Source of the DNA: Acidobacteriota bacterium
Lineage (GTDB): Bacteria; Acidobacteriota; Terriglobia; Bryobacterales; Bryobacteraceae
Direction: 5' to 3'
NCBI GenBank assembly: GCA_003223115.1
Contig: QHXW01000041.1
Coordinates: 972-64,971 of the forward strand
DNA length: 64,000 nucleotides
Shown here piece by piece: positions 47,163-62,576 of the stretch; position 1 is the first letter of the stretch; each line of letters opens with the position of its first letter. Below the pieces are notes generated by a model, which was not told the origin of the DNA, did no database searches, and worked only from the letters and a program-made list of their open reading frames with translations. The translations under genes were made by a program, and so were the position numbers.

Positions 47163-48103
47163 ATGCTTAGAATTCTTGCTGTTGTGACGGTGTCAATCAT
47201 GTTGCTTGTCACTACGCCTGTTCAGGCGTGGTTCGACGGCGGCCACATGGTCGTGGCTTACATCGCCTATCAAAAACTGGCTCCCGTGACGCGTGCGCGT
47301 GTCGATGGATTGTTGAAGCTGAACCCCATGTACTCGGCATGGACCAAGGGTGTGACTCAGAAGCGTAAAGGTCTGGTTGCTTTTCTGCGCGCCGCAACGT
47401 GGCCCGACTGTATCAAGCAAGCCACGTGCGCCCCCGGCTACACCAGCGACGGCGGCGATATTCCTCCCGGCAACCCCACCGACAATCAGAACATCGGTTA
47501 TGTGGACAAGTTGATGCACAAGTACTGGCATTTCGTCGACCTTCCCGACTCGGCCGGCTCGCCGGGTGAACCGCCGAAGGTTCCGAACGCCCAGACAGAA
47601 ATTCTCCTCCTGGCACACGATATCGGAAAAAACGAGTCAGACGACATCAAGTCATATGACGTGGTTTGGCTGGAACACCTGGTAGGCGATGTTCATCAGC
47701 CGCTGCATTCCACCTCTCGCTTCACCAAGAATCATCCGCACGGAGAAACTCTGTGCCTTTTTGTGCGAAGCCCTGCAGAGATGAGCTTCATGCATATTGG
47801 GATGGCCTGCTCGGGGACAAGCTGACGGTCGCGCAGGTAAGCAAGAAGGGCCAGAGCCTGCTTGCTGGCGGAAAACCTGCCGGTGCGGACAACGCTACGC
47901 CGGTTTCGTGGATCACGGATAGTTTCGATCTCGCGAAAGCCGTGGTCTACGTTCCGCCGATCAGTGACGACAACAATCCCTCGGTAAAGATCTCGCCCCG
48001 GCCCGACGCCGCCTATCGGACGAAAGCGTCCGCAGTGGCGCAATCTCAGGTGACCCTCGCCGGCTACCGCCTGGCAGCTCTGTTAAATCTCAATTTGAAG
48101 TGA
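47163..48103 (+). pseudogene. S1/P1-family nuclease interrupted by one frameshift (~47,745-47,765)
   Basis: Signal peptide, then the mature N-terminus WFDGGHMVVAYIAY and HQPLH motif in frame 1. The ELHAYWDG motif and C-terminus continue in ORF 47666-48103, in a second frame. Confidence 0.7.
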
Positions 48104-48169
48104 GCCGTCGGCCGGAGTGGATAATCCCTCACGAGCACCAACCCGTCTATACCGCATTGCGGTATACTG

Positions 48170-48573
48170 TTGGTGGACCATGCGCCCGAGATCACGGTCC
48201 TGCAATTGCCGAAGTTCAAGGCCGAGGCCACGGAGTTGATAGGAGCGGACGGTATCGAAGCGTTGGCCGTTTATCTGACCGATCGTCCAGACGCGGAAGA
48301 CGTGATACCGCAGGTTTACGGCTCGAAGAAATATGCCTTTACATGGATCTCAGGCTGGAAGGCAAACCGGGCGCCGGCGGAGTCCGGAAGCTGCGATGGG
48401 CGGCGAAGGACAAGGGGAAGCGCGGTGGCGCACGGATCAATTACCTTTACGTTGTGATCGCCGTACGCAACGACCTCCTACGCTGTTATGCGAAAAATGT
48501 TCGAATGGATCTCTCCTCTCACGAAAAGAACGAACTGCGGCAAATCGCGGCTTGTCTGAAAGGAGTCAATAGA
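48170..48573 (+). pseudogene. RelE/HigB-like toxin (GGxRKLRW...GKRGGxR type), frameshifted and lacking its own stop
   Basis: The N-terminal part (MVDHAPEITVLQLPKFKAEA...DVIPQ) is in the frame of ORF 48170. The conserved GGVRKLRWAAKDKGKRGGARINYLY...DLSSHEKNELRQI core is in the frame of ORF 48100. Confidence 0.5.
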
Positions 48574-48885
48574 ATGCCAAAGAGAGCGCCGGCGAAGAAG
48601 ACGACTTTTGGAGCGGACCTGATCGACGGAATGAAGCTGGTCCTGGTGCACCAGCGGGGCAAAATCGAACTGGAACAGGTTTGGCCGAAGCCGGTCGATG
48701 TAAAGGCTATTCGCAAATGGGTAAAAATGTCGCAGGCAGAATTCTCAAGAACCTATGGCATCAGCAAGCGCGCACTGCAGGAATGGGAGCAGGGCGGACG
48801 TCAGCCGGACTCGGCCGCGCGCGCGTACCTAACGGTCATCGCGAAGGAACCCGCGGTGGTGCGCCGGGCACTCGCCAGCGCATGA
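48574..48885 (+). CDS. XRE-family HTH antitoxin partner
   Basis: ATG at 48574 preceded by AAAGGAG. HTH region IRKWVKMSQAEFSRTYGISKRALQEWEQGGRQP. Confidence 0.65.
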   Translation: MPKRAPAKKTTFGADLIDGMKLVLVHQRGKIELEQVWPKPVDVKAIRKWVKMSQAEFSRTYGISKRALQEWEQGGRQPDSAARAYLTVIAKEPAVVRRALASA

Positions 48886-49816: not shown

Positions 49817-50110
49817 TCAGGCTGCCTGACGGTAATCATAATTCAGCATCCCGCCCAGCCGCTGTCGGCGCCGGATGGCCCCGCTCGTTTCAACCTGGGG
49901 CTCGCGCGGAACGATCAACCGGTTCCCCCATCCCTGGTGGTTCCGTTCCAGGTGATAATGCGCAACGAATTCATGAATGGCCTTACGCAGAGAGCCTTCC
50001 CCGAATAAGATCAGTCGATCCAAATAGGATTCCTGGATGGTCCGGACAAACCGTTCTGCGTAGGCGTTCAGATTCGGCGAACGCGGCGGCAGTGTCACAC
50101 TCTTTACCTC
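49817..50110 (-). mobile_element. C-terminal fragment of a DDE integrase/transposase (rve core domain)
   Basis: PPRSPNLNAYAERFVRTIQESYLDRLILFGEGSLRKAIHEFVAHYHLERNHQG is the end of an rve-type catalytic core. No N-terminal half is present. Confidence 0.7.
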
Positions 50111-50261
50111 TGTAGCCGCAGGAGGCGCGGGCGACGTACATGTCCACATGATAAGGCATAAACACTCATTTAACAATGAAATATAGCAATAATACATGTC
50201 TACATAATTGCGTACAAAACAGCAGTCAAATGAATGAAGCTTAAGAGGTTAGCTCAAAACA

Positions 50262-50934
50262 TCAGAGGTGAACATCCGATATAGTCCCACTGCAGCCAGC
50301 GCCAACGCGAGCAGAGCGAAGGCCATGAGCACTCGCGCTTGAAAGCCCTGGGGAGAGCGCGGTATCGAGGACCTTGTCCATACTGTCGAAGCTCACGGCG
50401 GTTTCCCGGCCCACCGTTCTAATGCGGCTGCGCAAGGATGGCGCGAGGCTCATTGGTTCTAGCGATGTGCGCACCACCAACTGGCTGCTTGAGAGATATC
50501 CCGGCCGCACTTGGGTGTAGCAGACATAGGCTGCCGGAGCAACTGGCGCAGTGAGGCCGCGCTGCCGCACATCCTTGACTATTCCGACGATCGTGAGCCA
50601 ATGCTCCTTCGGCTCGAAACTGTCGAACCAGATGCGCTCGCCAACGGGGTCCCGGCCCGGGAAATACCTTCGTGCCATCTCTTCGCTGATAATGGCGGCT
50701 CCGGGAGTCTCCGGCCGTGTCCGATTCTGTAAAGTCGCGCCCACGGAGGAGAGGAACACTAAGTGCGCGAAAATAGCCAGGGCTTATGATGCGGTAGTCT
50801 GCATCCGCAATGCCGGGCAGACTTCGCCGATTCTCGATAGAGAAGTGTCCATCGCGCTGAATGGGGTCGAGTGGGAGATCGCGAATCAGGCCGGCCGGCA
50901 AAGGCCTCGACCCAGCCTGGGTAGTCATGGGCAC
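50262..50934 (-). pseudogene. Fragment of MacB-like/ADOP-type ABC permease (periplasmic core domain), frameshifted and truncated
   Basis: Two overlapping minus-strand ORFs carry YRIISPGYFRALSVPLLRGRDF, AIISEEMARRYFPGRDPVGERI, WLTIVGIVKDVRQRGL and VVRTSLEPMSLAPSLRSRIR. No FtsX TM bundle follows. Confidence 0.6.
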
Positions 50935-51106: not shown

Positions 51107-51350
51107 CGGTCGCCTCCTGGATGCTTCGCAACAAAATCATCGGTCGGGCGACTGGTGGAGTCAAATCGGTTAGCAGCTGGGAGTGCCGGAAGGGAAGAAA
51201 GAGCTTCCAAAGGGAAAGAAACCGAAGGTTTCGTCCCCTTTGGGCTACTTCACGAACCATGCGAAAGGCCCAATGGCATCTGAAAGCCAAGCTTTTGGAA
51301 ATTTCAAATATGTTTGGCTAGAATTTCGGTCTTCAGCTGCTGATTCTAAA

Positions 51351-51408
51351 TGGTGGGCGCGGCAGGACTCGAACCTGCGGCCTCCTGCGTGTGAAGCAGG
51401 CGCGCAAT
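51351..51408 (-). pseudogene. tRNA-Val(CAC) 3' fragment (anticodon arm, variable loop, T arm, acceptor 3' strand, CCA)
   Basis: The reverse complement reads GCGC-G-CCTGC-TTCACAC-GCAGG-AGGCC-GCAGG-TTCGAGT-CCTGC-CGCGCCC-A-CCA. No matching 5' acceptor strand or normal D arm lies upstream. Confidence 0.7.
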
Positions 51409-51656
51409 CTACGCGTGGTTGATTCTGCAGGTACTTATAAGAGCGTATTTGACGCATAAGGCGCCCTGAGCGCCAGATTTCCGCCCAAAACTCCGCCCAA
51501 AAAAGTTTGGGCGGAAAATGCTGCACGGTGAAATAGTTCGTCGATTGCGACCTTGCCGGATGCAGTAGGGCGCGTGCGTCGCGGCCCGCAGCGCGGCCAA
51601 TCCGGAGGCCCGTGTTCGCGTAGAGGGGAGTCCGGATTCTCCCGGCCTCGCCATTT

Positions 51657-51685
51657 TTGCAATTTCGCAACTTTGCGAATAGACT
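51657..51685 (+). promoter_or_regulatory. Putative sigma70-type promoter with operator palindrome for TA copy 1
   Basis: TTGCAA, a 17-nt spacer, then TAGACT. The spacer holds a perfect inverted repeat TTCGCAA-CT-TTGCGAA (51664-51679). A GTG start lies 9 nt after the -10 element. The motif is conserved in copy 2. Confidence 0.45.
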
Positions 51686-51694
51686 GGATTTCGA

Positions 51695-52061
51695 GTGCCC
51701 AGAACGAGAGTGGTCCTCTACCGGGAGGAAGACGGATCGCCCGTTCCTTGAGTGGTTCACCAAATTACCGGCGAAAGTGCAGGACAAGTGCTATCTCCGA
51801 TTGGACCGACTACGGGAAATGGGACACGAACTGCGGCGGCCCGAAGCCGACCTCTTGCGTGACGGGATTTACGAACTGCGGGTCAGCCTGCAGGGGGTGC
51901 ATCACCGGGTTCTGTACTTCTTCCATGGGACGGTTGCCGCAGTGGTCTCGCACGGCCTTGTGAAAGAGCGGGTAGTCCCGCCGAAGGAAATCGATCGTGC
52001 TGTCGAGCGCAAGAAGCGATTCGAAGCGAATCCGCAGAAGCACACTTACGAGGAGGCTTGA
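51695..52061 (+). pseudogene. RelE/ParE-superfamily toxin (phage Gp49/HigB-2-like), copy 1, frameshifted
   Basis: The GTG start gives VPRTRVVLYREEDGS and then a premature stop. The remainder (PFLEWFTKLPAKVQDKCYLRLDRLREMGHELRRPEADLLRDGIYELRV...) is in another frame because of the 2-nt deletion relative to copy 2. Confidence 0.65.
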
Positions 52062-52062
52062 T

Positions 52063-52572
52063 ATGGCAAAAAGGTCGAAACCAACCGGTGATGCAGTGGA
52101 GATCCTGCACCGCCGCTTCTACGCAGGCAGGCCGAGTCGGCTGAAGAAGCTGGAAGAGGCGCGGGCGAACGAAGAGATCGCCCGCAAAATTCACGCATTG
52201 CGCACAGCGGCAGGCCACACTCAATCTCAACTTGCCAAGCTCATCGGTACCACGGCATCGGTCGTCTGCCGCCTTGAAGACGCGGATTACGAAGGCCATT
52301 CCCTGGCAATGTTGCGAAGGATCGGCGCGTTCGGCATAGCCAGAACTGGTCCCGGACTGATCAGACCTCGGCAGGCCGTAGAACACGAAAGCGGCCGCAA
52401 CATCCGCGCGGTTCGTCGCGAAACAGAAGCATTGGCCTCCAAGCCAACAGAAGCCCGTCACAAACAGCTTGCGTTCGCCGCCGGTAGCTTCGTCCGCCCT
52501 GGGGAAAATAGGGCGTGCGGCGCCCGGTTGGTGCCCGTGCCGGAATGCAGATCGGGAACCACCGCGACATAG
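52063..52572 (+). pseudogene. XRE-family HTH antitoxin, copy 1, C-terminus replaced after a ~44-nt deletion
   Basis: Near-identical to copy 2 through ...HSLAMLRRIG (one substitution in the compared stretch), then reads through into unrelated sequence until 52572. Confidence 0.6.
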
Positions 52573-52607
52573 CCGGCTTCGGCAAGCTGATCGGCCAGCT
52601 CCTGAAC
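52357..52607 (-). pseudogene. Dienelactone-hydrolase-family fragment, copy 1
   Basis: Minus-strand readings ELADQLAEAGYVAVVPDL and VTGFCWLGG...AAAFVFYG are in different frames and match the two conserved DLH segments. Confidence 0.45.
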
Positions 52608-52940
52608 TCAGTCCGTAAGACGCAGTCAGGCCGCCCGCGCGCTAGGCTGGGGGGTTCAAACGATTCTAGGAAGAAATAAGCTGCGGGGGCGCGGCGGCTA
52701 GGCTACGCGAAGATACCAACTGCGAACTCAAGGTTTTCCTGTGTGCGAAGTGTGTTCGAACTACAAGTAGATCGGAAGTCGAGACGGCGATGGGTCGTCG
52801 ATTCGATCCAGAGTCGACCGACCCACAATCCCACATTCTATTACCCAATCTCTGGCTCTCTGGCCTGCGGATGATGACATTTCCGAGCCGATCTAGGCAT
52901 AATTAGGTAACATCCCCCGAGAAGAAAGAGCCTGGAACTG

Positions 52941-55574
52941 GTGTGGCATAGATTTAAGAAGAACCGGCCATCTCCTGGCGCCGTTGCACCCGCTTTGAAT
53001 GGGCCCGCTCTCAGTACTGGAGTGGAGGCCAGCGTCCGGCAACTGATCGCCAACGGCAAACATAAGGTCGCGGTCGAAACCGCTAAGGAGCTTCACAAGG
53101 CGCAGGCCACAGCCGCCTCCGAAGCGCTGCTGGTGGATGCGTACGCCGCGCGGATTCAATCGCTCATCGATCAGAATCTGGCGGCGGAGGCAAAGGCTCT
53201 GCTGGAGTTGGTGCGTGAGCGCTACCCGTCTGCGCGGGAGCGGCTGAATGGGCGCAACGGCTCCGCCGGAATGCACGCCGGCCGGCTCGAGGATCTGGTG
53301 CGGCCGCTGAACGATCCGGAGCTAAGCGCAGAACGCCGCGCCGCCATCGAAGCAGCCGTCGCGCGCGAGGCTGGTGACCTCGCGTCGCTGGTGGAGTGTG
53401 CCGCATTGCCCCCGGAACATCCTCTGCGCAAGGCCGCATCCGCATTGCAGCGCGCGTTCCTCGCCGTGACTGGAGGGCCCGTTGGCGAGGAGGCGGTCGA
53501 ACTGCCGGAGGTCTCGCACCGCAGCCCCCTGGCGCCCTGGAAACTGCTAGTGCGCGCCATCGCCTGCTTCTATCGGAGGGAGGACGAAGCATGCCGGCGA
53601 TACCTGGAAGCCATCAAGCCGGAAGCCGCGGCGGCGCGGCTGGTTCCGGCGATGCAGGCGATGCTCGGCGGCAAACCGACGGGGCTGACGCCCGCGGCTG
53701 CCGCGCTGGTATCGTCAACAACCTCCAGTCCCGCGGTGCTGCGGAAGGCACTGGAGGCATTGGAGGTGGCTTTCGACTCGCACAAAGACGGGTCCATTCT
53801 CAAAGGCATCCGCGAAGCCGTGCGGGCGTGCCGCGAGGCTGCGCCCGATCAGATCGAGAGACTGAAACAGCACATTTCGGTGCGCAGCGCGCTGGCCAGC
53901 ATGAGCATGGAAAAGGTCAAGGCGGCCATGGGCGAGGCTTCCCGGCACGACGCCTATTTCTTGAGGCTATTCGCGCGTGGGATGGAGGAACTCGGGGACC
54001 CCGAGAACGTCGCGATGGCCTGCGCGACCTGGGATGAGTACCGGCAACACGCGGTGCGCGAAGGATGGTTCACGGCGAACGGCCCGGAAGCCGCCACGCT
54101 CTATCTCCACATGGTGGGTGTGCTGCGAAAGCTGCCTCGCGAATTGCTAGTGGATCTGCAAAAAACCGCCTGCCGGCAAAACAAGAAGTCCGCCGAGGAG
54201 CTGTATTTTCTGTACCCCGAGAAGCTGTATGAACGCGCCTGCGCGCTCGATCCGCATTTCGAATCGTTCTCGCAATGGACGGATTGGGCGAAACGCGGCC
54301 GGGCAGGGACGGCCGAGAGAGTGGCCGAAGCGTGGCACAAGATCCGCCCGATGGATATCGAGCCGATTCTCCTCCTGATGGAAGAGAAGGAGAAGCGAAA
54401 CGCGTTCCATACGGCGCTGCAATATTTGGCTAAGGCTGAGCGCATCGACAGCGTTCATCCCGTCGTGCGCAGAGCGCGGCTGCGTCTGCTGGCGGCGAGC
54501 GCCCTGCGGCACCTCCAGCAGAAAAAACCTAACCTGGCGGAGGAGAAGCTGGCCGAGATGGGGATGCTGCCTCAGTCCCAGCAGGGTGACCGGCCGGCTT
54601 TCCTGGCGGCCTTGCGCTACATGGTCTGCACGGTTCGCGGTGCGAGCGATCGGTCCGCCGCACATCGCGCGGAAGTGGAGCGAGTGCTCGGAAGCAAAGC
54701 GGCTGCGGCCCTGCTGATCTTCGGCGTGGCCAATGCTTCGAAGCAGGGCGCACTCGAGAATCTACCTCCCATCGAGATGCTTGGCAAAACAGAACGCGCC
54801 GCGCTGCCCGAGGCCGTGATTCGCGTAGTCGAGCTGGCCAAGGACATGCAAATGAGCCGGCCGATTCCCAGGGATTGGCTGGCGGAAGCGGCGAAGCAAT
54901 TCCCGCGAAGCAGCCAATCGCTCAATGTGGGCGAGCTTCAGACCCTGGCGGAGGCAGGCTTGTATGCGGAGCAGTTCGAAATGGCTTATGCGGTTTCGGC
55001 GGCCGGGATGGAGCGCGGCGGTCCCACCGTAGCGAGCTTTCTGCTACTGCGTGCACTGTCCTTACCGGGGTACCAGGAAGAGCGAAGGGCCGTTTGCGCC
55101 GTGGCGGCAGCACAGCTTGCGCGCCAGCAGCGCCATATGGACGTGGTCGATAGGGCCGTGGAACTGTTTGCCGATTCCCCTTTCGGCGATATCTCCCTCA
55201 CTCCCGAACAGGCATCCACGGTGGTTCGAAAGGAAACGGCGGAACGGGCGTTCCCCACGGCGCACCGCCCCGGCCCCGACTATAGCGATTTCTTAGGGGC
55301 GGCCTTGTGCAATTGTCCCAAGTGCCGCCGCGCAAGCGGAGAGGCCGTCGGTCCATTCGAAGATTTCGAGGAGGATGATGACGATGTCGACCTTGACGCA
55401 TTTCTCGACGGAATGGAACTCCCGCCGGACATGCCGCCGGAGATCGCGAGAATCCTGCTCGAGGAGACCCAGAAGTCCGCCCAGCGCGGCGAGTCTCTCG
55501 ATTCCCTGCTGAACCGGTTGTTCGGATCGGGGACAGGATTCGGCGGGAGACGCAAGAAAGGCAGGCGGAGATAA
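52941..55574 (+). CDS. 877-aa all-alpha (TPR/HEAT-like) protein of unknown function; first gene of the Hsp70 operon
   Basis: GTG start. Long A/L/E/R-rich helical sequence with no P-loop or other catalytic motif seen. The C-terminus has CNCPKC, an acidic run FEDFEEDDDDVDLDAFLD and a basic tail GGRRKKGRRR. Its stop overlaps the next start (TAATG). Confidence 0.7.
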   Translation: MWHRFKKNRPSPGAVAPALNGPALSTGVEASVRQLIANGKHKVAVETAKELHKAQATAASEALLVDAYAARIQSLIDQNLAAEAKALLELVRERYPSARERLNGRNGSAGMHAGRLEDLVRPLNDPELSAERRAAIEAAVAREAGDLASLVECAALPPEHPLRKAASALQRAFLAVTGGPVGEEAVELPEVSHRSPLAPWKLLVRAIACFYRREDEACRRYLEAIKPEAAAARLVPAMQAMLGGKPTGLTPAAAALVSSTTSSPAVLRKALEALEVAFDSHKDGSILKGIREAVRACREAAPDQIERLKQHISVRSALASMSMEKVKAAMGEASRHDAYFLRLFARGMEELGDPENVAMACATWDEYRQHAVREGWFTANGPEAATLYLHMVGVLRKLPRELLVDLQKTACRQNKKSAEELYFLYPEKLYERACALDPHFESFSQWTDWAKRGRAGTAERVAEAWHKIRPMDIEPILLLMEEKEKRNAFHTALQYLAKAERIDSVHPVVRRARLRLLAASALRHLQQKKPNLAEEKLAEMGMLPQSQQGDRPAFLAALRYMVCTVRGASDRSAAHRAEVERVLGSKAAAALLIFGVANASKQGALENLPPIEMLGKTERAALPEAVIRVVELAKDMQMSRPIPRDWLAEAAKQFPRSSQSLNVGELQTLAEAGLYAEQFEMAYAVSAAGMERGGPTVASFLLLRALSLPGYQEERRAVCAVAAAQLARQQRHMDVVDRAVELFADSPFGDISLTPEQASTVVRKETAERAFPTAHRPGPDYSDFLGAALCNCPKCRRASGEAVGPFEDFEEDDDDVDLDAFLDGMELPPDMPPEIARILLEETQKSAQRGESLDSLLNRLFGSGTGFGGRRKKGRRR

Positions 55575-55858
55575 TGGAACCCAGAGAAGTACTGGGCATC
55601 AACCAGGATGCCGGCGAAGAAGAGATCCGCACCGCTTATGTGCGCAAGGTGAAGGAACATCCGCCGGACCGGTCGCCGGAGGAGTTCGAGCGTATTCGCG
55701 ATGCTTATGATAGCCTGCGTGATCCCCGCCGGCGCATGCGGGACAGGCTGCTTTCCGTCGATCCGTTTGCACCGTTTGTATCCGTTATCGAGCTCAAGGT
55801 GCGGGAGCGCCGGTTCGCCGGGCCGCAGCCGTGGCTGGAGGTTCTGAAAGGAAAGTGA
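55574..55858 (+). CDS. Minimal J-domain protein (94 aa) with HPPD in place of HPD
   Basis: EVLGINQDAGEEEIRTAYVRKVKEHPPDRSPEEFERIRDAYDSLRD matches J-domain helices I-III. There is no G/F, zinc-finger or client-binding domain. Confidence 0.8.
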   Translation: MEPREVLGINQDAGEEEIRTAYVRKVKEHPPDRSPEEFERIRDAYDSLRDPRRRMRDRLLSVDPFAPFVSVIELKVRERRFAGPQPWLEVLKGK

Positions 55859-55865
55859 TCGGGGG

Positions 55866-56585
55866 ATGAACCGGGAGGAGATCCTGCGGCGCTTTGAGGA
55901 ATGGTTGGACGGCGCGCTCGCCGCCGAGGAGCCGCCGCGCGGGGTCGACGCGGAAATTCTGGCGGCAATGGCAGGAGACAGCGAGGACGGGGCGCGCCCG
56001 GTGCCAAACGCCGCTTACTCATTGTGGGCGGCCATGACGGCGCTTACGCAGGAAGTCAAGCTGCAGGGAAGGTCCTTCAAGGAATTGAACGACACGCTTG
56101 GCTCGCAGGCGAACCGGATGGCTGAACGCGAGCGCGACCTGCTGCGTGAGACCGAGCGCCGCTGCCGCAAGGAAATCCTTGGCGTCCTGATCGATCTGCG
56201 CGACCGGCTGGGGCGCGGCCTGGAATCGGTGCGGGCAAGCGAGGCGGGGATCTCGAAGGCCGCCTGGCGAGGCTGGCACGTGCGCATCTTCTCGCGGCCA
56301 GGCGAGGATGCCGTAGGCGCCACGCTCGCAGCCTTGAGGAAAGGGTACGAGCTGGGGCTCGATCGACTGGATCAAACCCTGGAGGAATTCAACACGCGCG
56401 AAATTCCCTGTGAGGGGCACGCGTTCGATCCGCGGCGGATGAACGCCATCGATCGCCAGGAATCGGGCGCCGTTCCCGAAGGCACGGTGATCGAGGTTTA
56501 CCGCAGCGGTTACGAATGGAATGGAGAAGTGTTTCGACCGGCGCAGGTGAAGGTTTCGTGTGCGCCGGCGGGAGAAAGAAAATGA
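55866..56585 (+). CDS. GrpE-like nucleotide-exchange factor
   Basis: Long helical N-terminal half followed by a GrpE beta-domain signature (GHAFDPRRMNAI...GTVIEVYRSGYEWNGEVFRPAQVKVS). A GGGGG run precedes the ATG. The stop overlaps the Hsp70 start (ATGA). Confidence 0.8.
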   Translation: MNREEILRRFEEWLDGALAAEEPPRGVDAEILAAMAGDSEDGARPVPNAAYSLWAAMTALTQEVKLQGRSFKELNDTLGSQANRMAERERDLLRETERRCRKEILGVLIDLRDRLGRGLESVRASEAGISKAAWRGWHVRIFSRPGEDAVGATLAALRKGYELGLDRLDQTLEEFNTREIPCEGHAFDPRRMNAIDRQESGAVPEGTVIEVYRSGYEWNGEVFRPAQVKVSCAPAGERK

Positions 56586-58399
56586 GTGATCTAATTGCCG
56601 GTATCGACTTAGGGACCACGAATTCGGAGATCGCCGCGTTCGCCGGCGGCCAGGTGCGAGTGCTCGGGCCAGGAGATACGCGCATGCTGCCCTCCTGCGT
56701 AGGATTTTCGCCAGCGGGAGAACTGCTGGTGGGCGAGGCGGCGCGCAACCAGCAGGCGCTTTATCCCGAGCGCACTGTGCGCAGCATCAAGCGCAAGATG
56801 GGCAGCGAGGAAAAAGTGCGCGTGGGCAGCAAGGATTTTCTGCCACAGGAGATCTCCGCGCTCATCCTGCGCGAACTCGCGGAGTGGGCTCACCGCGCGC
56901 TGGGCGAGCGCCCACAGAGGGCCGTGATCACCGTGCCAGCCTACTTTTCGGATCCGCAGCGGAATGCCACGCGCGAGGCCGGCGCGCTGGCCGGGCTGGA
57001 AGTGGTGCGCATTCTCAACGAGCCTACGGCGGCCAGTCTGGCCTACGGCTACGGGGACGGATCGCCGCACACGGTGCTCATTTACGACCTCGGCGGCGGC
57101 ACCTTCGATGTCTCGGTGGTGACGGTGGAGGGCGACATCACCGAGGTGCTGGCGAGCCACGGCAACAACCACCTCGGCGGCGACGACTTCGATGATCTGC
57201 TTACAGAGCGGCTGGCGGCGGAGTTTGAAAAGCAGCACGGCGTCGATGTCCGCCAGGGACATCCGGCGGCGAAGGCACGGCTCTGGTGGGCGGCGGAAGA
57301 AGCCAAGAAGAAACTGAGCTTCGAACCGTACGTCAAGGTCCGCGAGGAGGCGCTGCTCACCCGGCTCTTCCGGCCCCTGCATCTCGAAGTGGAAATTTCG
57401 CGCGACGAATATGAAGGCATGATTCGTCCGCTGGTGGAATCCACGCTCGACAGCGTGTCCAAAGCGCTGCAGGATTCCGGGAAGAAGCCGGGCGACATGG
57501 ATGCGATTCTGCTGGTCGGCGGCTCCACGCGCACGCCGCTGGTCTCCAGCCTGCTCATCGAAAACATCGGTTTGGAGCCCCGGCAGGACGTGCATCCGGA
57601 TCTCGCCGTGGCGCTGGGCGCCGGGGTCATGGCGTCGCGCCTCGCCGGGCGCGCCGTGGAACGCGTGCTGGTGGACGTTTCGCCATACTCCTTCGGCGTC
57701 TCATATCTCGGCGACCGCGGCGGATATCCCTATCCGCACTGTTACAAGCCGATTATCCGGCGAAATACGCCGCTGCCTTTGACGCGCACCGAGCAGTACA
57801 TGACCAGCCACCCCTATCAAACCGAGGTGGATGTCCACGTATATCAGGGCGACGATGAGGACGCGCTGAAGAACATCCTGGTTGGGGATTTTCGCGTCGA
57901 AGGCCTGACCGCGATGGAGGATGCAAACGAGATTCTCTGTCGTATGCGCCTCGATCTGGACGGCATTCTGGAGGTCGCGGCGGTGGAGAAGCGGACCGGT
58001 AAGTCGAAGCAAATCCGGATCGCCAATGCGCTGCGTGCGAAGAGCGCCGAGGAGATCGCGGCGGGGCGGGAGCAGATTCAGGAGTTGTACGAGACGCGCG
58101 GCGAGATGGTGGGCGATGCGTGGGAGACGGCAGAAGATCTCGAAGAAGAAGTGGTGGATGGGGGCGCTCAGGTGGTCGAAATGCCTGCTCCAGTGCGCGC
58201 GGACGGCGACGCGGAAATAGAGAGCCTGCTGGAGCGTTCACACTGGCTGCTCGCGAAGATGCATGCGGAAGACCGCGAAGAGGCGATCGACCTGCACGAG
58301 AAAATCGATACGGCCGCGGCATCCGGGGACGTGGCGGCGTTGAAGGAGGCTAGCGGCGCGCTGAAGGAGTTGCTCTTCTTCGTCGAGGGCCAGAATTGA
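56582..58399 (+). CDS. Hsp70-family ATPase chaperone (DnaK/HscC-like paralogue), full NBD + SBD + lid
   Basis: IDLGTTNS, ITVPAYF, NEPTAA, DLGGGTFDVS and VGGSTRTP nucleotide-binding motifs. SBD-beta region VDVSPYSFGV. Acidic helical C-terminus without EEVD. Confidence 0.9.
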   Translation: MSDLIAGIDLGTTNSEIAAFAGGQVRVLGPGDTRMLPSCVGFSPAGELLVGEAARNQQALYPERTVRSIKRKMGSEEKVRVGSKDFLPQEISALILRELAEWAHRALGERPQRAVITVPAYFSDPQRNATREAGALAGLEVVRILNEPTAASLAYGYGDGSPHTVLIYDLGGGTFDVSVVTVEGDITEVLASHGNNHLGGDDFDDLLTERLAAEFEKQHGVDVRQGHPAAKARLWWAAEEAKKKLSFEPYVKVREEALLTRLFRPLHLEVEISRDEYEGMIRPLVESTLDSVSKALQDSGKKPGDMDAILLVGGSTRTPLVSSLLIENIGLEPRQDVHPDLAVALGAGVMASRLAGRAVERVLVDVSPYSFGVSYLGDRGGYPYPHCYKPIIRRNTPLPLTRTEQYMTSHPYQTEVDVHVYQGDDEDALKNILVGDFRVEGLTAMEDANEILCRMRLDLDGILEVAAVEKRTGKSKQIRIANALRAKSAEEIAAGREQIQELYETRGEMVGDAWETAEDLEEEVVDGGAQVVEMPAPVRADGDAEIESLLERSHWLLAKMHAEDREEAIDLHEKIDTAAASGDVAALKEASGALKELLFFVEGQN

Positions 58400-58830
58400 C
58401 CCGATCCGTTCGAGTGGCGCACGCGCTCGTGCGCGCCGCGTCGACATTCTTGTCGACACTGGTGCGACGCCCTCCGAAGACCCCCTCTAGCAGGGTACCG
58501 GACATACCACGAACGACTCTTTCCTCGGGATTGCGCAGCGCCGGCGTCGAGAACCGGTGCCCCGTCTGCCAGGCGCGTTTTCGCGGCGCGCGCATCTGCT
58601 CACGTTGCGGCGCCGACCTGGAGCCCCTGATGTTGCTGGCTGTGAAGGCTTGGCAATTGCGTCAAGCAGCCAGGCAGGCGCTGGAGGCCGGGAACGTGGA
58701 GCGGGCTCTCGGGTTCGCCATCGAGGCGCAAGGCATCCAAGGCACCGACGGCGGAGAGGCGTTACGTTTGCTGGGCGCGTGGTTGAAGACCGTATGCGGG
58801 TCGTCATCCTGTTGCTCCTCGCCGCGGTAG
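58396..58830 (+). CDS. Zinc-ribbon protein with C-terminal helical hairpin; last gene of the Hsp70 operon
   Basis: CPVCQARFRGARICSRCG (CxxC-N10-CxxC), then a TPR-like helix pair. The TTG at 58396 overlaps the Hsp70 stop. A TTG at 58531 is an alternative start, because the N-terminal ~45 aa look non-proteinaceous. Confidence 0.5.
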   Translation: MTRSVRVAHALVRAASTFLSTLVRRPPKTPSSRVPDIPRTTLSSGLRSAGVENRCPVCQARFRGARICSRCGADLEPLMLLAVKAWQLRQAARQALEAGNVERALGFAIEAQGIQGTDGGEALRLLGAWLKTVCGSSSCCSSPR

Positions 58831-58962: not shown

Positions 58963-59176
58963 GTGTCTTCCGATGAACTCAAGGCCGCCGTCTTCCTTTT
59001 CTACAGCCTACTTGACGAGCAGCAGCGTCGCCTGTTTGCCGGTCTGCAGTCCACGAAGCTGGGACACGGCGGCGATAGGCATTCTGGCTGAACTGCTGGG
59101 CCTGGATCCGCACACCGTCGTCCGCGGACATCGGCAACTGCTCAATCAGAATGTAACGACTGGGCGCTGTGGGTAG
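58963..59176 (+). mobile_element. N-terminal fragment of a transposase (ISAzo13-like HTH region), frameshifted
   Basis: LLDEQQRRLFAGLQSTKLGHGGDR in one frame, then IAELLGLDPHTVVRGHRQLL in another. No catalytic domain follows. Confidence 0.45.
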
Positions 59177-59353
59177 TTCGCCAATATTCAGTCCGAGGCC
59201 ATAGCATTGCTGTTCAGAGCGCTAGCGCTAGCAGCTCTGGAAATTCTCGGGTTCAGGCAAAGCAGGATCACGTGCAAGGTTTTTGGGCGGAATTTCATCT
59301 ACTTGGCTTGATGTTTTCCTTAATGCTGCGCGCGGAAATGATTGAAAAAGATA

Positions 59354-59411
59354 TGGTGGGCGCGCACGGACTCGAACCGTGGCCCTCCTGCGTGTGAAGC
59401 AGGCGCGCAAT
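59354..59411 (-). pseudogene. tRNA-Val(CAC) 3' fragment, second copy with a different T stem
   Basis: The reverse complement reads GCGC-G-CCTGC-TTCACAC-GCAGG-AGGGC-CACGG-TTCGAGT-CCGTG-CGCGCCC-A-CCA. No 5' half is present. Confidence 0.7.
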
Positions 59412-59643
59412 TAATGCATTATAGATTCTACAGCCCTTACATGCGCGTAGTTGACGTATTAGGCGTTCGGGCCGCCAAATTTCCGCCCAAAACTCCGCCC
59501 AAAAAAGTTTGGGCGGAAAATGCTGCACGGCGAAATACTCACGGCACGCTGAGTTCTGATTGCGACCTTGCCGGATCTTTAGGGCGCTTGCGTGGCGGGC
59601 ACCGCAGTGCGCCAATCCGGAGGCCCGTTCCCGCCTCGCCATT

Positions 59644-59672
59644 TTGCAATTTCGCAACTTTGCGAATAGACT
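59644..59672 (+). promoter_or_regulatory. Putative promoter/operator for TA copy 2
   Basis: Identical TTGCAA-N17-TAGACT, with the TTCGCAA-CT-TTGCGAA palindrome at 59651-59666. Confidence 0.45.
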
Positions 59673-59681
59673 GGATTTCGA

Positions 59682-60049
59682 GTGCCCAGAACGAGAGTGG
59701 TCCTCTACCGGGAGGAAGACGGATCGAGCCCGTTCCTTGAGTGGTCAGCAAATTATCGGCGAAAGTGCAGGACAAGTGCTATCTCCGATTGGACCGACTA
59801 CGGGAAATGGGCCACGAACTGCGGCGGCCCGAAGCCGACCTCTTGCGCGACGGGATTTACGAACTGCGGGTCAGCCTGCAGGGGGTGCATCACCGGGTTC
59901 TGTATTTCTTCCATGGGACGGTTGCCGCAGTGGTCTCGCGCGGCCTTGTGAAAGAGCGGGTAGTCCCGCCGAAGGAAATCGATCGTGCTGTCGAGCGCAA
60001 GAAGCGGTTCGAAGCGAATCCGCAGAAGCACACTTACGAGGAGGCTTGA
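59682..60049 (+). pseudogene. RelE/ParE-superfamily toxin (Gp49/HigB-2-like), copy 2, frameshifted at a different site
   Basis: The N-terminus VPRTRVVLYREEDGSSPFLEW is in frame. A 1-nt deletion near 59745 (GAGTGGTCA versus GAGTGGTTCA in copy 1) shifts the rest (ORF 59741-60049). Confidence 0.65.
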
Positions 60050-60050
60050 T

Positions 60051-60371
60051 ATGGCAAAAAGGTCGAAACCAACCGGTGATGCAGTGGAGATCCTGCACCG
60101 CCGCTTCTACGCAGGCAGGCCGAGTCGGCTAAAGAAGCTTGAAGAAGCGCGGGCGAACGAAGAGATCGCCCGCAAAATCCGCGCATTGCGCACAGCGGCA
60201 GGCCACACTCAATCTCAACTTGCCAAGCTCATCGGTACCACGGCATCGGTCATCTGCCGCCTTGAAGACGCGGATTACGAAGGCCATTCCCTGGCAATGC
60301 TGCGAAGGATCGGCGGCGCACTGAATCAGAGAGTCGAGATACGGTTCGTCCCGATGCGGCGCTCGGCATAG
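60051..60371 (+). CDS. XRE-family HTH antitoxin, copy 2 (apparently intact, 106 aa)
   Basis: The ATG lies 1 nt after the toxin stop and is preceded by GAGGAGG. HTH region RALRTAAGHTQSQLAKLIGTTASVICRLE. Confidence 0.7.
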   Translation: MAKRSKPTGDAVEILHRRFYAGRPSRLKKLEEARANEEIARKIRALRTAAGHTQSQLAKLIGTTASVICRLEDADYEGHSLAMLRRIGGALNQRVEIRFVPMRRSA

Positions 60372-60391
60372 CAGAACTGGTCCCGGACAGA

Positions 60392-60638
60392 TCAGACCTC
60401 GGCAGGCCGTAGAACACGAAAGCGGCCGCCGGATCCGCGCGGTCCGTCGCGAAACAGAAGCCCTGGCTTCCAAGCCAACAGAAGCCCGTCACAAACAGCA
60501 TGCCATTCGCCTCCGTTAGCTTCGTCCGCCCTGCGGAAAATAGGGCGTGCGGCCCGCGGTTGGTGCCCATGCGGAAAGCAGATCGGGAGCCACCGCGACA
60601 TAGCCGGCTTCGGCGAGCTGATCGGCCAGATCCTGAAC
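60392..60638 (-). pseudogene. Dienelactone-hydrolase-family fragment, copy 2
   Basis: ADQLAEAGYVAVAPDL and VTGFCWLGSQGF...AAAFVFYG are in different frames on the minus strand. Confidence 0.45.
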
Positions 60639-61115: not shown

Positions 61116-62576
61116 CTACAGGGTCTTCAGAAAGGCGATGAGGGCCTTTTTCTTCTTGGCCGAGAGATCCAGCCCAAAACGGTGCCCCTTGACCGAGCGC
61201 GTCCGACCGTCGTAGCCCTTGAAGCCCGTGGGTACGTAGTCATCGCGAAGGCGGGCCGAATCGAACCAGTCCTCGAGTGTAGCGACTGAACCATTGTGTT
61301 CGAAAGGTCCCCGGTACCAGAGGCCTTTCAGGGAAGGGACTCTGTAGTAACCGGTGCCTTTGTGGGTTTCCAGCGCATAGCGCGAGTCGGTGCCGACTCG
61401 CGTTGCCATGATGTCAAAGCGTTGCTTGTGGTCGGCTGGAGGCTCAAAGCCATCCACCGGGATGAGTTTGTTGTTTGTGTAGAATGGTGGCGTGTGGCAC
61501 TGTCCGCACCCCTCGCGCTCGAAAATTTTCTTGCCGCGCGCCGCGACTGCGTCGAACAGGTTGGGATTCGGTGGCGGCTGAAGCGAATAGAGGTAAAGTA
61601 CGAGGGCGTATAGCTGCTCATCGCTGTAGCGCGCGGCATGCCCAGCGTCAGGTTTCGGCGGCTGCAAATCACCGTATCGATCGAGCCCGGCCATGTCCTG
61701 TACCAGCGAAGAATAGCGCATAAGATCACCGATACCCCGGTGGCGCACCAGACCAGTGTGGTCGAGATAACGGCGCTCCTCGACTCCAATCAGGTCGGGA
61801 ATCTGCGGCGGCACCAACATGCTGGTGTTACTCCTTGCAGTCACACCAGGCGGAATCTCTTCACCGGCAGCGACCAGTTCATCCAGTGACATCACTTGAG
61901 CGCGCCGGTTTGGATCATCTGACAGCCACGGCATTTCAAACTGACGGGTGAAGGCGCGGATCCGCTCCAGCACTTTGAAGGGATCGCCGGCTTTGGCGGC
62001 CCCGCGAAGCATCGAGGCGCCCTCGCGATCACCCGGGTTGTTGCCCTGCGCCCCGGGAACGACTGCTCCGTCCGTCATCACGCGCGTGTGGCATGTATTG
62101 CAGCCCATCGAACCCAATTCCACCTCACCTTTTCGCCGGATTACCCAACGCGCGAACGGAACGGTTCCGTCCTTCGCGACGGGCATCCCGGTCTTCTCGA
62201 AGAACGAGGGATCACGTAGATTCACCGCGCTGAAGAAGACAGGGCCATACGATGTTGGGGCGTTGAAGACGACTTCGCCGACCTTGACCCAGTCTTCGCG
62301 CGTGTGCAGCCTCGAGGGGTCGAAAGCAATCTCGGGTTCCTGCTGCTTGAGCCACTCTATATAGCCCGCTGGCTCGCGGCTCGGATGGTAAACCGGATAG
62401 CTCTTGTAAATGATGCGCACGGGAATTCGATAGTAGGTCCCCTCGGAAATATGGATGGGAGAATACTTTGGGTTCGCCAGTGGCACTTCGAGCGCCTCGA
62501 CATCCGAGTTCTTCCATGTTTGGGGAATCTTAGGCTGAAATGCGCTTACCGCGAGCAGGACTGCCAGCGCCTTCAT
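61116..62576 (-). CDS. Secreted dihaem c-type cytochrome family protein (peroxidase/MauG-like architecture, function unknown)
   Basis: Signal peptide MKALAVLLAVSAF. Two CXXCH motifs (CNTCH and CGQCH) are about 200 aa apart. Confidence 0.65.
   Translation of the reverse strand: MKALAVLLAVSAFQPKIPQTWKNSDVEALEVPLANPKYSPIHISEGTYYRIPVRIIYKSYPVYHPSREPAGYIEWLKQQEPEIAFDPSRLHTREDWVKVGEVVFNAPTSYGPVFFSAVNLRDPSFFEKTGMPVAKDGTVPFARWVIRRKGEVELGSMGCNTCHTRVMTDGAVVPGAQGNNPGDREGASMLRGAAKAGDPFKVLERIRAFTRQFEMPWLSDDPNRRAQVMSLDELVAAGEEIPPGVTARSNTSMLVPPQIPDLIGVEERRYLDHTGLVRHRGIGDLMRYSSLVQDMAGLDRYGDLQPPKPDAGHAARYSDEQLYALVLYLYSLQPPPNPNLFDAVAARGKKIFEREGCGQCHTPPFYTNNKLIPVDGFEPPADHKQRFDIMATRVGTDSRYALETHKGTGYYRVPSLKGLWYRGPFEHNGSVATLEDWFDSARLRDDYVPTGFKGYDGRTRSVKGHRFGLDLSAKKKKALIAFLKTL

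Follow-up and report, generated by a model that had tools for sequence, protein, structure and literature searches.

Current reviews recognize three types of bacterial Hsp70, namely DnaK, HscA and HscC, and hold that specialized Hsp70 proteins with few clients no longer need an exchange factor. HscC has as hallmarks a deletion in the nucleotide-binding domain (NBD), an insertion of 4-8 residues in loop L1,2 and a deletion of about 9 residues in helix B (Mayer review, PMC8215388). The HscA-HscB-IscU system joins a specialized Hsp70 and a private J adaptor to one dedicated client with a defined motif. In Shewanella, a 21-residue tail of AtcJ, not its J domain, binds AtcC and recruits Hsp70 to a specific complex (PMC6715715). 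Myxococcus xanthus co-transcribes a non-heat-shock Hsp70 paralog, SglK (MxDnaK2), with its own upstream GrpE, GrpS, for a specific programme (PMC11019930, PMC8265645). Here we describe a five-gene Hsp70 cassette at positions 52941-58830 of a 64,000-nucleotide stretch of contig QHXW01000041.1 (the window), which comes from an Acidobacteria metagenome-assembled genome (MAG). The operon is conserved across five phyla and appears to be undescribed; no description of the five-gene module was found in the searchable literature. We propose that it encodes a dedicated, insulated Hsp70 machine that acts on its own operon partners, separate from the general DnaK, and we give this reading a probability of about 0.6.

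Five genes form one operon conserved across five phyla

Gene 1 (52941-55574, GTG start) encodes an 877-aa protein predicted to be a tetratricopeptide repeat (TPR)-like alpha-solenoid ("BIG"). It is followed by gene 2 (55574-55858) for a 94-aa J-like protein with a Pfam DnaJ match, gene 3 (55866-56585) for a 239-aa GrpE-family nucleotide exchange factor with a Pfam GrpE match, gene 4 (56582-58399, ATG at 56582) for a 605-aa Hsp70 with a Pfam HSP70 match, and gene 5 (58396-58830) for a zinc-ribbon protein, 144 aa in this form, with weak Pfam zinc-ribbon matches. All five are open reading frames (ORFs) on the plus strand. Their coordinates bear out the tight same-strand packing described in the initial annotation, and the four junctions are exactly as it had given them. 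The gene 2 start overlaps the gene 1 stop in TAATG, genes 2 and 3 are separated by a 7-nt gap (TCGGGGG), the Hsp70 start overlaps the grpE stop in ATGA, and TTG 58396 overlaps the Hsp70 stop in TTGA. Purine-rich stretches resembling ribosome binding sites (RBS) lie 5' of cassette gene starts. A promoter and terminator scan found no internal plus-strand promoter or terminator in the cassette. The five genes are one co-inherited, translationally coupled operon, an arrangement well beyond chance.

The distribution of the cassette was examined by scanning one genome per GTDB species (185,579 species genomes). About 122 species encode a relative. Eighty loci were retained, from Acidobacteriota (Bryobacterales, Terriglobia, Thermoanaerobaculia), Desulfobacterota, Planctomycetota, Myxococcota and Hydrogenedentota. 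A tblastn search with the five proteins of the window showed the order large protein, J, GrpE, Hsp70, zinc ribbon in every sufficiently long locus, even where the short final ORF had escaped the gene callers. Over 54 genomes, the five families show correlated pairwise divergence (Spearman 0.45-0.90). The mean pairwise identity of the Hsp70 is 67%, and divergence broadly follows taxonomy. Two of the families, the 877-aa and the zinc-ribbon proteins, are specific to the cassette and show strong conservation. The earlier suggestion of a dedicated chaperone machine is thus strengthened by the fixed-order co-occurrence of all five families across five phyla, by the correlated divergences and by the two cassette-specific families.

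The conserved 5' control region (52858-52940, plus strand) was defined by promoter scan and by alignment with relatives, and comprises a promoter, a 5' untranslated region (UTR) and an RBS. The promoter (52874-52903) is sigma-70-like, with ATGACA at -35, an 18-nt spacer and CATAAT at -10 (10/12 match), and lies 38 bp 5' of the gene 1 GTG. The 5' UTR is conserved and its purine-rich RBS is CCCCCGAGAAGAAAGAG. The 70-85 bp 5' of gene 1 are the only flank sequence common to the window and its close relatives (84-89% identity). An alignment of nine loci keeps the -35, the -10 and the 5' UTR, and similarity stops just 5' of the -35. As to heat-shock control, no CIRCE element was found at ≤3 mismatches and the conserved promoter is sigma-70-like, sigma-32-type promoters of these phyla being outside the scan.

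In GenBank the cassette proteins are PYT31702-PYT31706, annotated in order as hypothetical, hypothetical, GrpE, Hsp70 and hypothetical. Public annotations of the families read only "Hsp70 family protein", "J domain-containing protein", "GrpE" and "hypothetical protein". The NCBI start of PYT31702.1 lies 27 codons downstream (850 aa); homologs favor GTG 52941.

Some copies in other genomes are rearranged. In L081 (8001-10393) J and GrpE are deleted, so that the first ~363 aa of the large protein run directly into the C-terminal half of the Hsp70, with the zinc-ribbon gene after it. In L085 (8001-9897) a frameshift splits the large gene. A second zinc-ribbon copy lies about 1.5 kb downstream in L023 (11108-13140). 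The zinc-ribbon protein of L001 (15537-16504) has an internal C-terminal duplication.

An HscC-like Hsp70 with its own GrpE

Gene 4 matches Pfam HSP70 with E = 1.1e-130. Its product scores 457.7 and 444.2 against the DnaK equivalogs NF001413 and TIGR02350 (cut-offs 648 and 822.55), and 366.9 against the HscA model TIGR01991 (cut-off 708.55). Identity to the E. coli proteins is 38% for DnaK, 36.5% for HscC and 36.4% for HscA. A residue table of 71 family sequences was compiled, together with alignments against E. coli DnaK, HscA and HscC.

Lobe I of the NBD has a 24-residue deletion (DnaK 76-101) with boundaries identical to those in E. coli HscC. Because such a deletion is also present in many non-proteobacterial DnaKs (PMC8215388), it is only weakly diagnostic of the HscC type. 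The interdomain linker is the P-Y-S variant, as in HscC. In the beta subdomain of the substrate-binding domain (SBD), loop L1,2 carries an 8-residue insertion, RGGYPYPH, aligned with the HscC indel, and a one-residue deletion is common to this Hsp70 family and HscC. Lid helix B has a 10-residue deletion that also aligns with an HscC indel. Like HscC, the protein has no disordered C-terminal tail. Subdomain IIB is of DnaK length.

The GrpE-signature segment is kept (P293 in 68/71, H295 in 70/71). So is the lower salt bridge of the nucleotide cleft, with K55 present as Arg in 57/71 or Lys in 4/71 and E267 in 70/71; the upper cleft salt bridge is lost (R56N, E264W). Because the HscC indels are present yet the GrpE signature and the lower salt bridge are kept, we class this Hsp70, on its aligned residues, as HscC-like and apparently still GrpE-dependent. 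The grpE gene immediately upstream agrees with this.

Each of the catalytic residues D8, K70, E171, D194, T199 and D201 is found in 68-70 of the 71 sequences, and the family keeps the substrate pocket. Alignment and residue table agree with the initial annotation that the ATPase motifs are intact and an SBD is present. Its further claim of a complete Hsp70 cycle needs correction: the cycle is non-canonical, as the J domain has PPD, not HPD. Positions R167, N170, T173, L391 and P419 are 96-100% conserved, with R167, L391 and P419 at 100%. Position Q378 is Leu or Met in 71/71. Position D477 is Arg in 36, Ser in 27 and His, Asn or Lys in 7, and is never acidic.

Every member ends in ELLFF(V/M)EG. 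We considered ELLFFVEG as an EEVD-like tail bound by a TPR protein and rejected the idea because this sequence aligns to the end of lid helix E and is not a free tail.

The GrpE protein matches its Pfam family over residues 59-231 (8.1e-23), preceded by an N-terminal extension of about 60 aa, and scores below every NCBIfam GrpE equivalog cut-off. Its gene holds a fixed position in related loci. The motif reported earlier as FDP..H actually reads FDPRRM, and the Pfam GrpE match is still solid.

A J-like protein with PPD in place of HPD

The gene 2 product scores 41.9 bits against Pfam DnaJ PF00226 (gathering score 27.8, E 1e-10). It also aligns to solved J domains in the PDB (E = 2e-6), and the J fold covers residues 5-55. 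In the PDB alignment e-h-p-p-d of the query lies on r-y-h-p-d, with the first Pro on the His of HPD and the His of "HPPD" aligned with DnaJ Y32. A position table and alignment of 80 members gave the same register: H33 is Pro in 80/80, P34 is kept in 80/80, and D35 is Asp in 65 and Glu in 15. The residue before PPD varies (F/Y/H/N/C). The string "HPPD" is not an HPD, and the protein is "J-like" by the usual definition because P-P-[D/E] replaces HPD.

Compared with DnaJ, the helix II-III loop lacks six residues and has the length found in E. coli DjlB/DjlC. The protein had also been described as a J domain only. It has in addition a C-terminal tail of about 35 aa that is conserved family-wide, DP.APL.SL....RRF.GP.PWL.VL. 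No hydrophobic tail anchor was found in its 94 residues. Full-length DnaJ models score 37 vs a cut-off of 377, there being no G/F region, zinc-finger or C-terminal domains. The AtcJ model NF050028 gives 22.7 bits vs a cut-off of 150, and Pfam finds no HscB_C domain.

Contacts between DnaJ and DnaK provide a framework for these positions. H33 of DnaJ hydrogen-bonds the backbone of DnaK L391 in the linker, P34 contacts P419, D35 contacts R167 and Q378, and K48 forms a salt bridge with D477 (PMC8215388). In the cassette family K48 is Glu in 78/80 while D477 of the Hsp70 is never acidic, suggesting a private, co-evolved J-Hsp70 interface. Sequences lacking a full HPD were filtered out of the largest J-protein census, which gave a separate analysis to HPE variants only (PMC10410713), so the PPD family would have fallen outside it.

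An alternative is that the J-like protein is a non-stimulating regulator like mitochondrial Pam16, filling or tuning the J-binding site, and that hydrolysis is triggered either by another J protein (e.g. housekeeping DnaJ) or by nothing more than the client. Regulators with a J-like fold but no HPD are known (Pam16/Tim16). The His that is missing from 80/80 members is the one that normally reaches the DnaK linker at L391 (PMC8215388). However, P-P-[D/E] is invariant, so the loop is still under selection; the pairs D35/R167 and P34/P419 are fully conserved when Glu is accepted at D35 (D 65/E 15); and the K48/D477 pair is rewired, not decayed. No second J gene was linked to the cassette in the loci examined. 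We consider such a regulator unlikely.

The solenoid and zinc-ribbon proteins

The 877-aa protein has no Pfam, NCBIfam, PADLOC or PDB sequence match. More than 561 homologs were found in a 90%-clustered collection, and at 50% identity an exhaustive search gave 988 clusters. Almost all of these proteins are unannotated and 800-1000 aa in length. Mean column identity is 61% over 32 diverse members. PF27295, a precomputed match on one homolog, was not reproduced with the local Pfam copy and was discarded.

An AlphaFold2 model of the protein is all-alpha with 47 helices (pLDDT 83, pTM 0.53). Foldseek returned from the PDB only generic TPR-type scaffolds (Ctr9, IFT-A, Ski3, Naa15, APC subunits and OGT; TM 0.12-0.25), and from a viral library giant-virus TPR/Sel1 proteins. 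No catalytic domain was recognized. As the initial annotation had it, the protein is all-alpha and shows no recognizable catalytic motif. Judged by its model, it is a TPR-like solenoid outside known families.

The last ~100 residues form a distinct module. Its C-x-C-P-x-C-R knuckle (C790, C792, C795) is invariant, as is C719 of the protein. An acidic run comes next, then a conserved amphipathic helix that ends in SLL.RLFG, and last a basic tail, KKGRRR. The full helix motif is PPDMPPEIA..LFEET.K....GESLDSLL.RLFG. A Terriglobia-type clade (L038-L053 and related loci) has a hydrophobic ...[L/P]F terminus (e.g. GQGELF, DDAPF, DLDIPF). The two kinds of terminus suggest that docking at the C-terminus uses one of two alternative motifs.

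For the zinc-ribbon protein 1137 homologs were found, every one a small protein that stands alone. The family core of about 85 aa consists of CPVC.ARFRG...CSRCGADL and then three helices that make a TPR-like unit. There are two candidate starts, TTG 58396 (144 aa) and TTG 58531 (99 aa, NCBI PYT31706.1). The 45-residue N-terminal extension of the longer form is conserved only in the closest clade. The Cys ribbon of the initial annotation is present, with the TPR-like unit added; the 144-aa length is upheld in that clade only. The AlphaFold2 model (pLDDT 69.5) has a zinc knuckle and helices at 30-52, 56-70 and 76-94. No PDB sequence match and no significant fold match (best E ~1) were found, and the nearest shapes are small TPR-like units. 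A Hep1/Zim17-like escort protein was considered and found unsupported, there being no significant fold match. Both the solenoid and the zinc-ribbon protein probably carry Cys4 zinc sites.

These cysteines bring up a second alternative, a proteostasis module specific to metal, thiol or oxidative stress in which the Cys-rich zinc proteins are redox or metal switches or protected clients. The invariant Cys residues of the solenoid (C719, C790, C792, C795) and the Cys4 ribbon of gene 5 would suit such a role. So would the HscC-type features of the Hsp70, since E. coli HscC acts in Cd2+ and UV resistance and HscC/DjlB/DjlC mutants are Cd2+-sensitive (PMC8215388). However, this is pure analogy with a distant relative. 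The promoter is sigma-70-like, with no stress-type promoter or CIRCE recognized, and no metal transporter or redox genes recur beside the cassette. A stress-specific module is quite unlikely in our estimate, and a machine dedicated to its own operon partners is preferred.

A model for a dedicated Hsp70 machine

The J-like protein would be an adaptor that attaches by its C-terminal tail to the solenoid or the zinc-ribbon protein, much as the AtcJ tail docks on AtcC. Its J fold would bind the NBD-linker-SBD interface of the Hsp70 through rewired contacts, namely PPD, Glu at K48 facing Arg or Ser at D477, and Leu or Met at Q378. Because this contact set is rewired, only the cognate Hsp70 would be engaged. 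The SBD, with its 8-residue L1,2 insertion and shortened helix B, would grip a specific client segment. The best candidate for this segment is the flexible C-terminal tail of the solenoid, with its Leu-rich core beside a basic cluster; on sequence, this core and its basic residues resemble classic DnaK-binding motifs. HscC is reported to prefer positive charge (PMC8215388), which the basic tail of the solenoid would fit. GrpE would reset the cycle; since the Hsp70 keeps both the GrpE-signature region and the lower salt bridge of the cleft, it would still depend on this factor. The machine would use ATP to assemble, disassemble or activate the solenoid scaffold or the cargo bound to it.

The most specific form of this model is that the J-like protein has lost the HPD histidine yet drives its cognate Hsp70 through a co-evolved orthogonal interface, and that the machine assembles or disassembles the TPR-solenoid scaffold. 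We put it forward tentatively, with a low chance of being right in full. If true, it would be functionally like auxilin/Hsc70 in clathrin uncoating or the Pam16/Pam18-Mge1-Hep1-Tim44 import motor. It would also make the cassette a naturally insulated Hsp70 circuit in which a specialized Hsp70 keeps its own exchange factor, unlike HscA and HscC. The particular pairing of partners is much less probable than the general machine.

Several points weigh against this interpretation. The HscC-type assignment is based on shared indels and one E. coli reference, not on phylogeny. A canonical dnaK/dnaJ/grpE set was not confirmed in the same genome, the view being limited to a 64-kb MAG window. Who binds whom we infer from sequence, and the client may be an unlinked protein instead of the solenoid. 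His33 of HPD is essential in DnaJ, so the PPD protein may fail to stimulate ATP hydrolysis and might have a regulatory role instead.

Neighboring genes and a possible role in defense

The flanks of the cassette contain no conserved sixth gene, no synteny and no neighbor family beyond genome background. The commonest flank family, MacB/FtsX permease by its Pfam labels, is present at varied positions in 9 loci and looks like genomic background. Immediate neighbors were taken from 66 loci, a sample and not a genome-wide statistic. Among these 132 genes no Pfam family was seen more than 3 times, and no more than 2 of them, kinases or helicases of a generic kind, matched a PADLOC model. The flanks show neither a recurrent GTPase or McrC family nor isc genes. 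Several relatives lie amid housekeeping or metabolic genes, one of them beside miaE, dus, rsfS, accD and folC. The toxin-antitoxin (TA) and insertion sequence (IS) setting of the window is seen only in this MAG. Searches of PLSDB plasmids, GenBank phages and IMG/VR contigs gave no homolog of the large protein. We read the cassette as a conserved unit inherited with the chromosome, not as island cargo.

The initial annotation had described the cassette as island-borne and compatible with a conflict role, without recognizing any named defense system. An anti-phage, abortive-infection or element-maintenance system could be imagined in which infection is sensed by the scaffold or the zinc-ribbon protein, and a toxic activity is set free or switched on by the Hsp70 machine. 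Several observations fit. The cassette of the window sits in a 13-kb TA/IS patch between direct repeats and its distribution across phyla is patchy. Hsp70, GrpE, DnaJ and TPR parts occur in predicted conflict systems (PMC7159879), Hsp70 and helical repeats occur in CoCoNuTs (PMC11090510), and host DnaJ can mediate phage sensing (PMC12169576). However, all five proteins are negative with PADLOC (PADLOC-DB v2, 0 families at E ≤ 0.1). None of them has an effector-like domain (nuclease, protease, NADase, pore), and there is no GTPase or McrBC partner. Enrichment of defense genes or mobile elements did not appear among the 132 neighbors; neither recurring neighbors nor copies on plasmids, phages or viral contigs were found. 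Flanks in several relatives are housekeeping or metabolic, and the Hsp70 is 67% identical on average with divergence that broadly tracks taxonomy. The island framing finds no support. Nothing ties the cassette to phage defense, and such a role is very unlikely.

That the cassette is the organism's housekeeping DnaK-DnaJ-GrpE set in a divergent lineage is barely credible: Hsp70, GrpE and a J-fold protein do share one operon and no other Hsp70 lies in the 64-kb window, but, as the initial annotation already held, the Hsp70 is far from DnaK (457.7 vs 648 on the DnaK equivalog, 38% identity to E. coli DnaK, HscC-type indels), there is no full-length DnaJ and no HPD, the genes are always linked to two cassette-specific proteins, and ~122/185,579 species genomes compare with dnaK in 98.9% of bacteria (PMC11019930). 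The evidence as a whole favors a specialized machine dedicated to its operon partners.

Surroundings of the cassette in the window

The degraded TA/IS patch around the cassette spans about 13 kb (48.1-61 kb) amid ordinary metabolic genes. Within it, sequence comparison revealed a direct repeat of about 1.26 kb that brackets the cassette (51350-52607 and 59353-60638), as the initial annotation had said. The copies, which are given as context only, are 87% identical and are the only two in the window. Each copy begins with a partial tRNA; the left one contains a tRNA 3' fragment (51362-51414, minus strand, Rfam match) and a Gp49/HigB-like toxin gene (51657-52061, by domain match) with a helix-turn-helix (HTH) antitoxin beside it. 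The right copy holds the same tRNA fragment and a HigB/HigA-like pair. The left antitoxin ORF is extended or frameshifted (169-191 aa vs 106-128 aa). ARAGORN found no intact tRNA anywhere in the window. The repeat units appear to be what is left of two tRNA-targeted integrations or of one duplicated stretch.

Directly 3' of the cassette and before the right repeat is a frameshifted N-terminal fragment of an ISAzo13-family transposase (~58990-59150; NCBIfam NF033519, E = 4e-6, profile 3-51 of 387). The left edge of the patch consists of a RelE/MqsA-like ORF, possibly two fused or mis-called genes (48100-48885), a C-terminal fragment of an IS481-family transposase (49817-50197) and a MacB periplasmic-domain fragment (50262-50759). 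The TA modules (HigB/Gp49 toxins with HTH antitoxins) and the IS481 and ISAzo13 fragments account for the TA and IS debris noted earlier. Genes 5' of 48 kb encode GlgB, adenosine deaminase, an epimerase, an M48 peptidase and an S1/P1 nuclease. The first apparently intact ordinary gene past the right repeat (61116-62576, minus strand) encodes a protein of 486 aa whose matches, all weak, are to cytochrome c, RoxA-like and di-haem peroxidase models.

The GC content of the cassette is 0.641 vs 0.579 in the rest of the window, so it is indeed more GC-rich than its flanks. Cassette GC is above that of the flanks in 51/52 other loci as well (mean +2.9 points), and the excess of +6.2 in the window is the extreme of this general trend. 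With the same bias in 51/52 loci, the excess speaks less strongly for a recent import; for the most part it belongs to the cassette in general and is no clean import signature. The setting is a caution that TA genes, IS fragments and repeats in one MAG can wrongly suggest a role in defense.

Comparison with known Hsp70 systems

E. coli HscC shares with the cassette Hsp70 the NBD lobe I deletion boundaries, the P-Y-S linker, the L1,2 insertion, the helix B deletion of ~10 residues and the absence of a disordered C-tail (PMC8215388). DjlB and DjlC share the short helix II-III loop, and some cassette J members share a non-canonical third motif residue with them. The E. coli locus ybeQ-ybeR-djlB-ybeT-ybeU-djlC-hscC also combines a specialized Hsp70, J proteins and TPR-like repeats (Sel1 proteins YbeQ and YbeT). 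However, the cassette has its own GrpE, the GrpE signature, the lower salt bridge and a IIB of DnaK length, whereas HscC is thought not to use GrpE. The cassette J is 94 aa, soluble and has PPD, whereas DjlB/C are ~480 aa, tail-anchored and have HPE. The cassette Hsp70 is no closer to HscC (36.5%) than to DnaK (38%). Profile comparison found no detectable homology of the solenoid or the zinc-ribbon protein to YbeQ, YbeT, YbeR, YbeU or DjlB/C, and they were rejected as relatives of the hscC locus.

The Shewanella AtcJ-AtcA-AtcB-AtcC network likewise has a short J protein with a short conserved C-terminal extension in an operon with uncharacterized partners (PMC6715715). AtcJ differs in having a canonical HPD and in working with the housekeeping DnaK; its operon has no Hsp70 or GrpE and its partners are unrelated. 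GrpS-SglK resembles the cassette in its dedicated, upstream GrpE, a likeness that is not a claim of orthology. It differs in being bicistronic, with no adjacent J, solenoid or zinc-ribbon gene, and SglK is a PRK00290-class DnaK that complements E. coli dnaK. Neither grpS-sglK nor stkABC of M. xanthus is the same system, as their architectures are different. HscA-HscB-IscU follows the same logic of specialized Hsp70, private J adaptor and one client. HscA, in contrast to the cassette Hsp70, is without the GrpE signature and needs no exchange factor, and the cassette is without an HscB C-domain, isc genes or a client of the LPPVK type. GAP1-N2 GTPase systems (PMC7159879) and the CoCoNuT protein CnuD (PMC11090510) also combine Hsp70, with or without GrpE, with DnaJ or TPR/HEAT proteins and zinc ribbons. 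They are built on GTPases (GAP1-N2 or McrB) and effectors (nucleases, HEPN), and the ATPase motifs of CnuD are degenerate, whereas the cassette has no GTPase, McrC or effector domain and its ATPase is fully intact.

The module is broad, with about 1000 sequence clusters in five phyla. No long-standing question is made directly testable by it. For chaperone specialists the surprise would be an HPD-less J family, the rewired K48/D477 pair and an HscC-like Hsp70 with its own GrpE. With a natural HPD variant and rewired partner positions in the Hsp70, the family lets the evolution of J-Hsp70 specificity and insulation be studied in nature, and synthetic biology may find orthogonal chaperone pairs in it. 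The 877-aa solenoid and zinc-ribbon families gain a testable context. We classify the cassette as a specialized Hsp70 system. In its working it is closest to HscC-DjlB/C, HscA-HscB-IscU, GrpS-SglK and the AtcJ network, yet it lacks defining features of each. With its HscC-like Hsp70 paired to a dedicated GrpE, it would add a fourth type to the three bacterial Hsp70s of current reviews.

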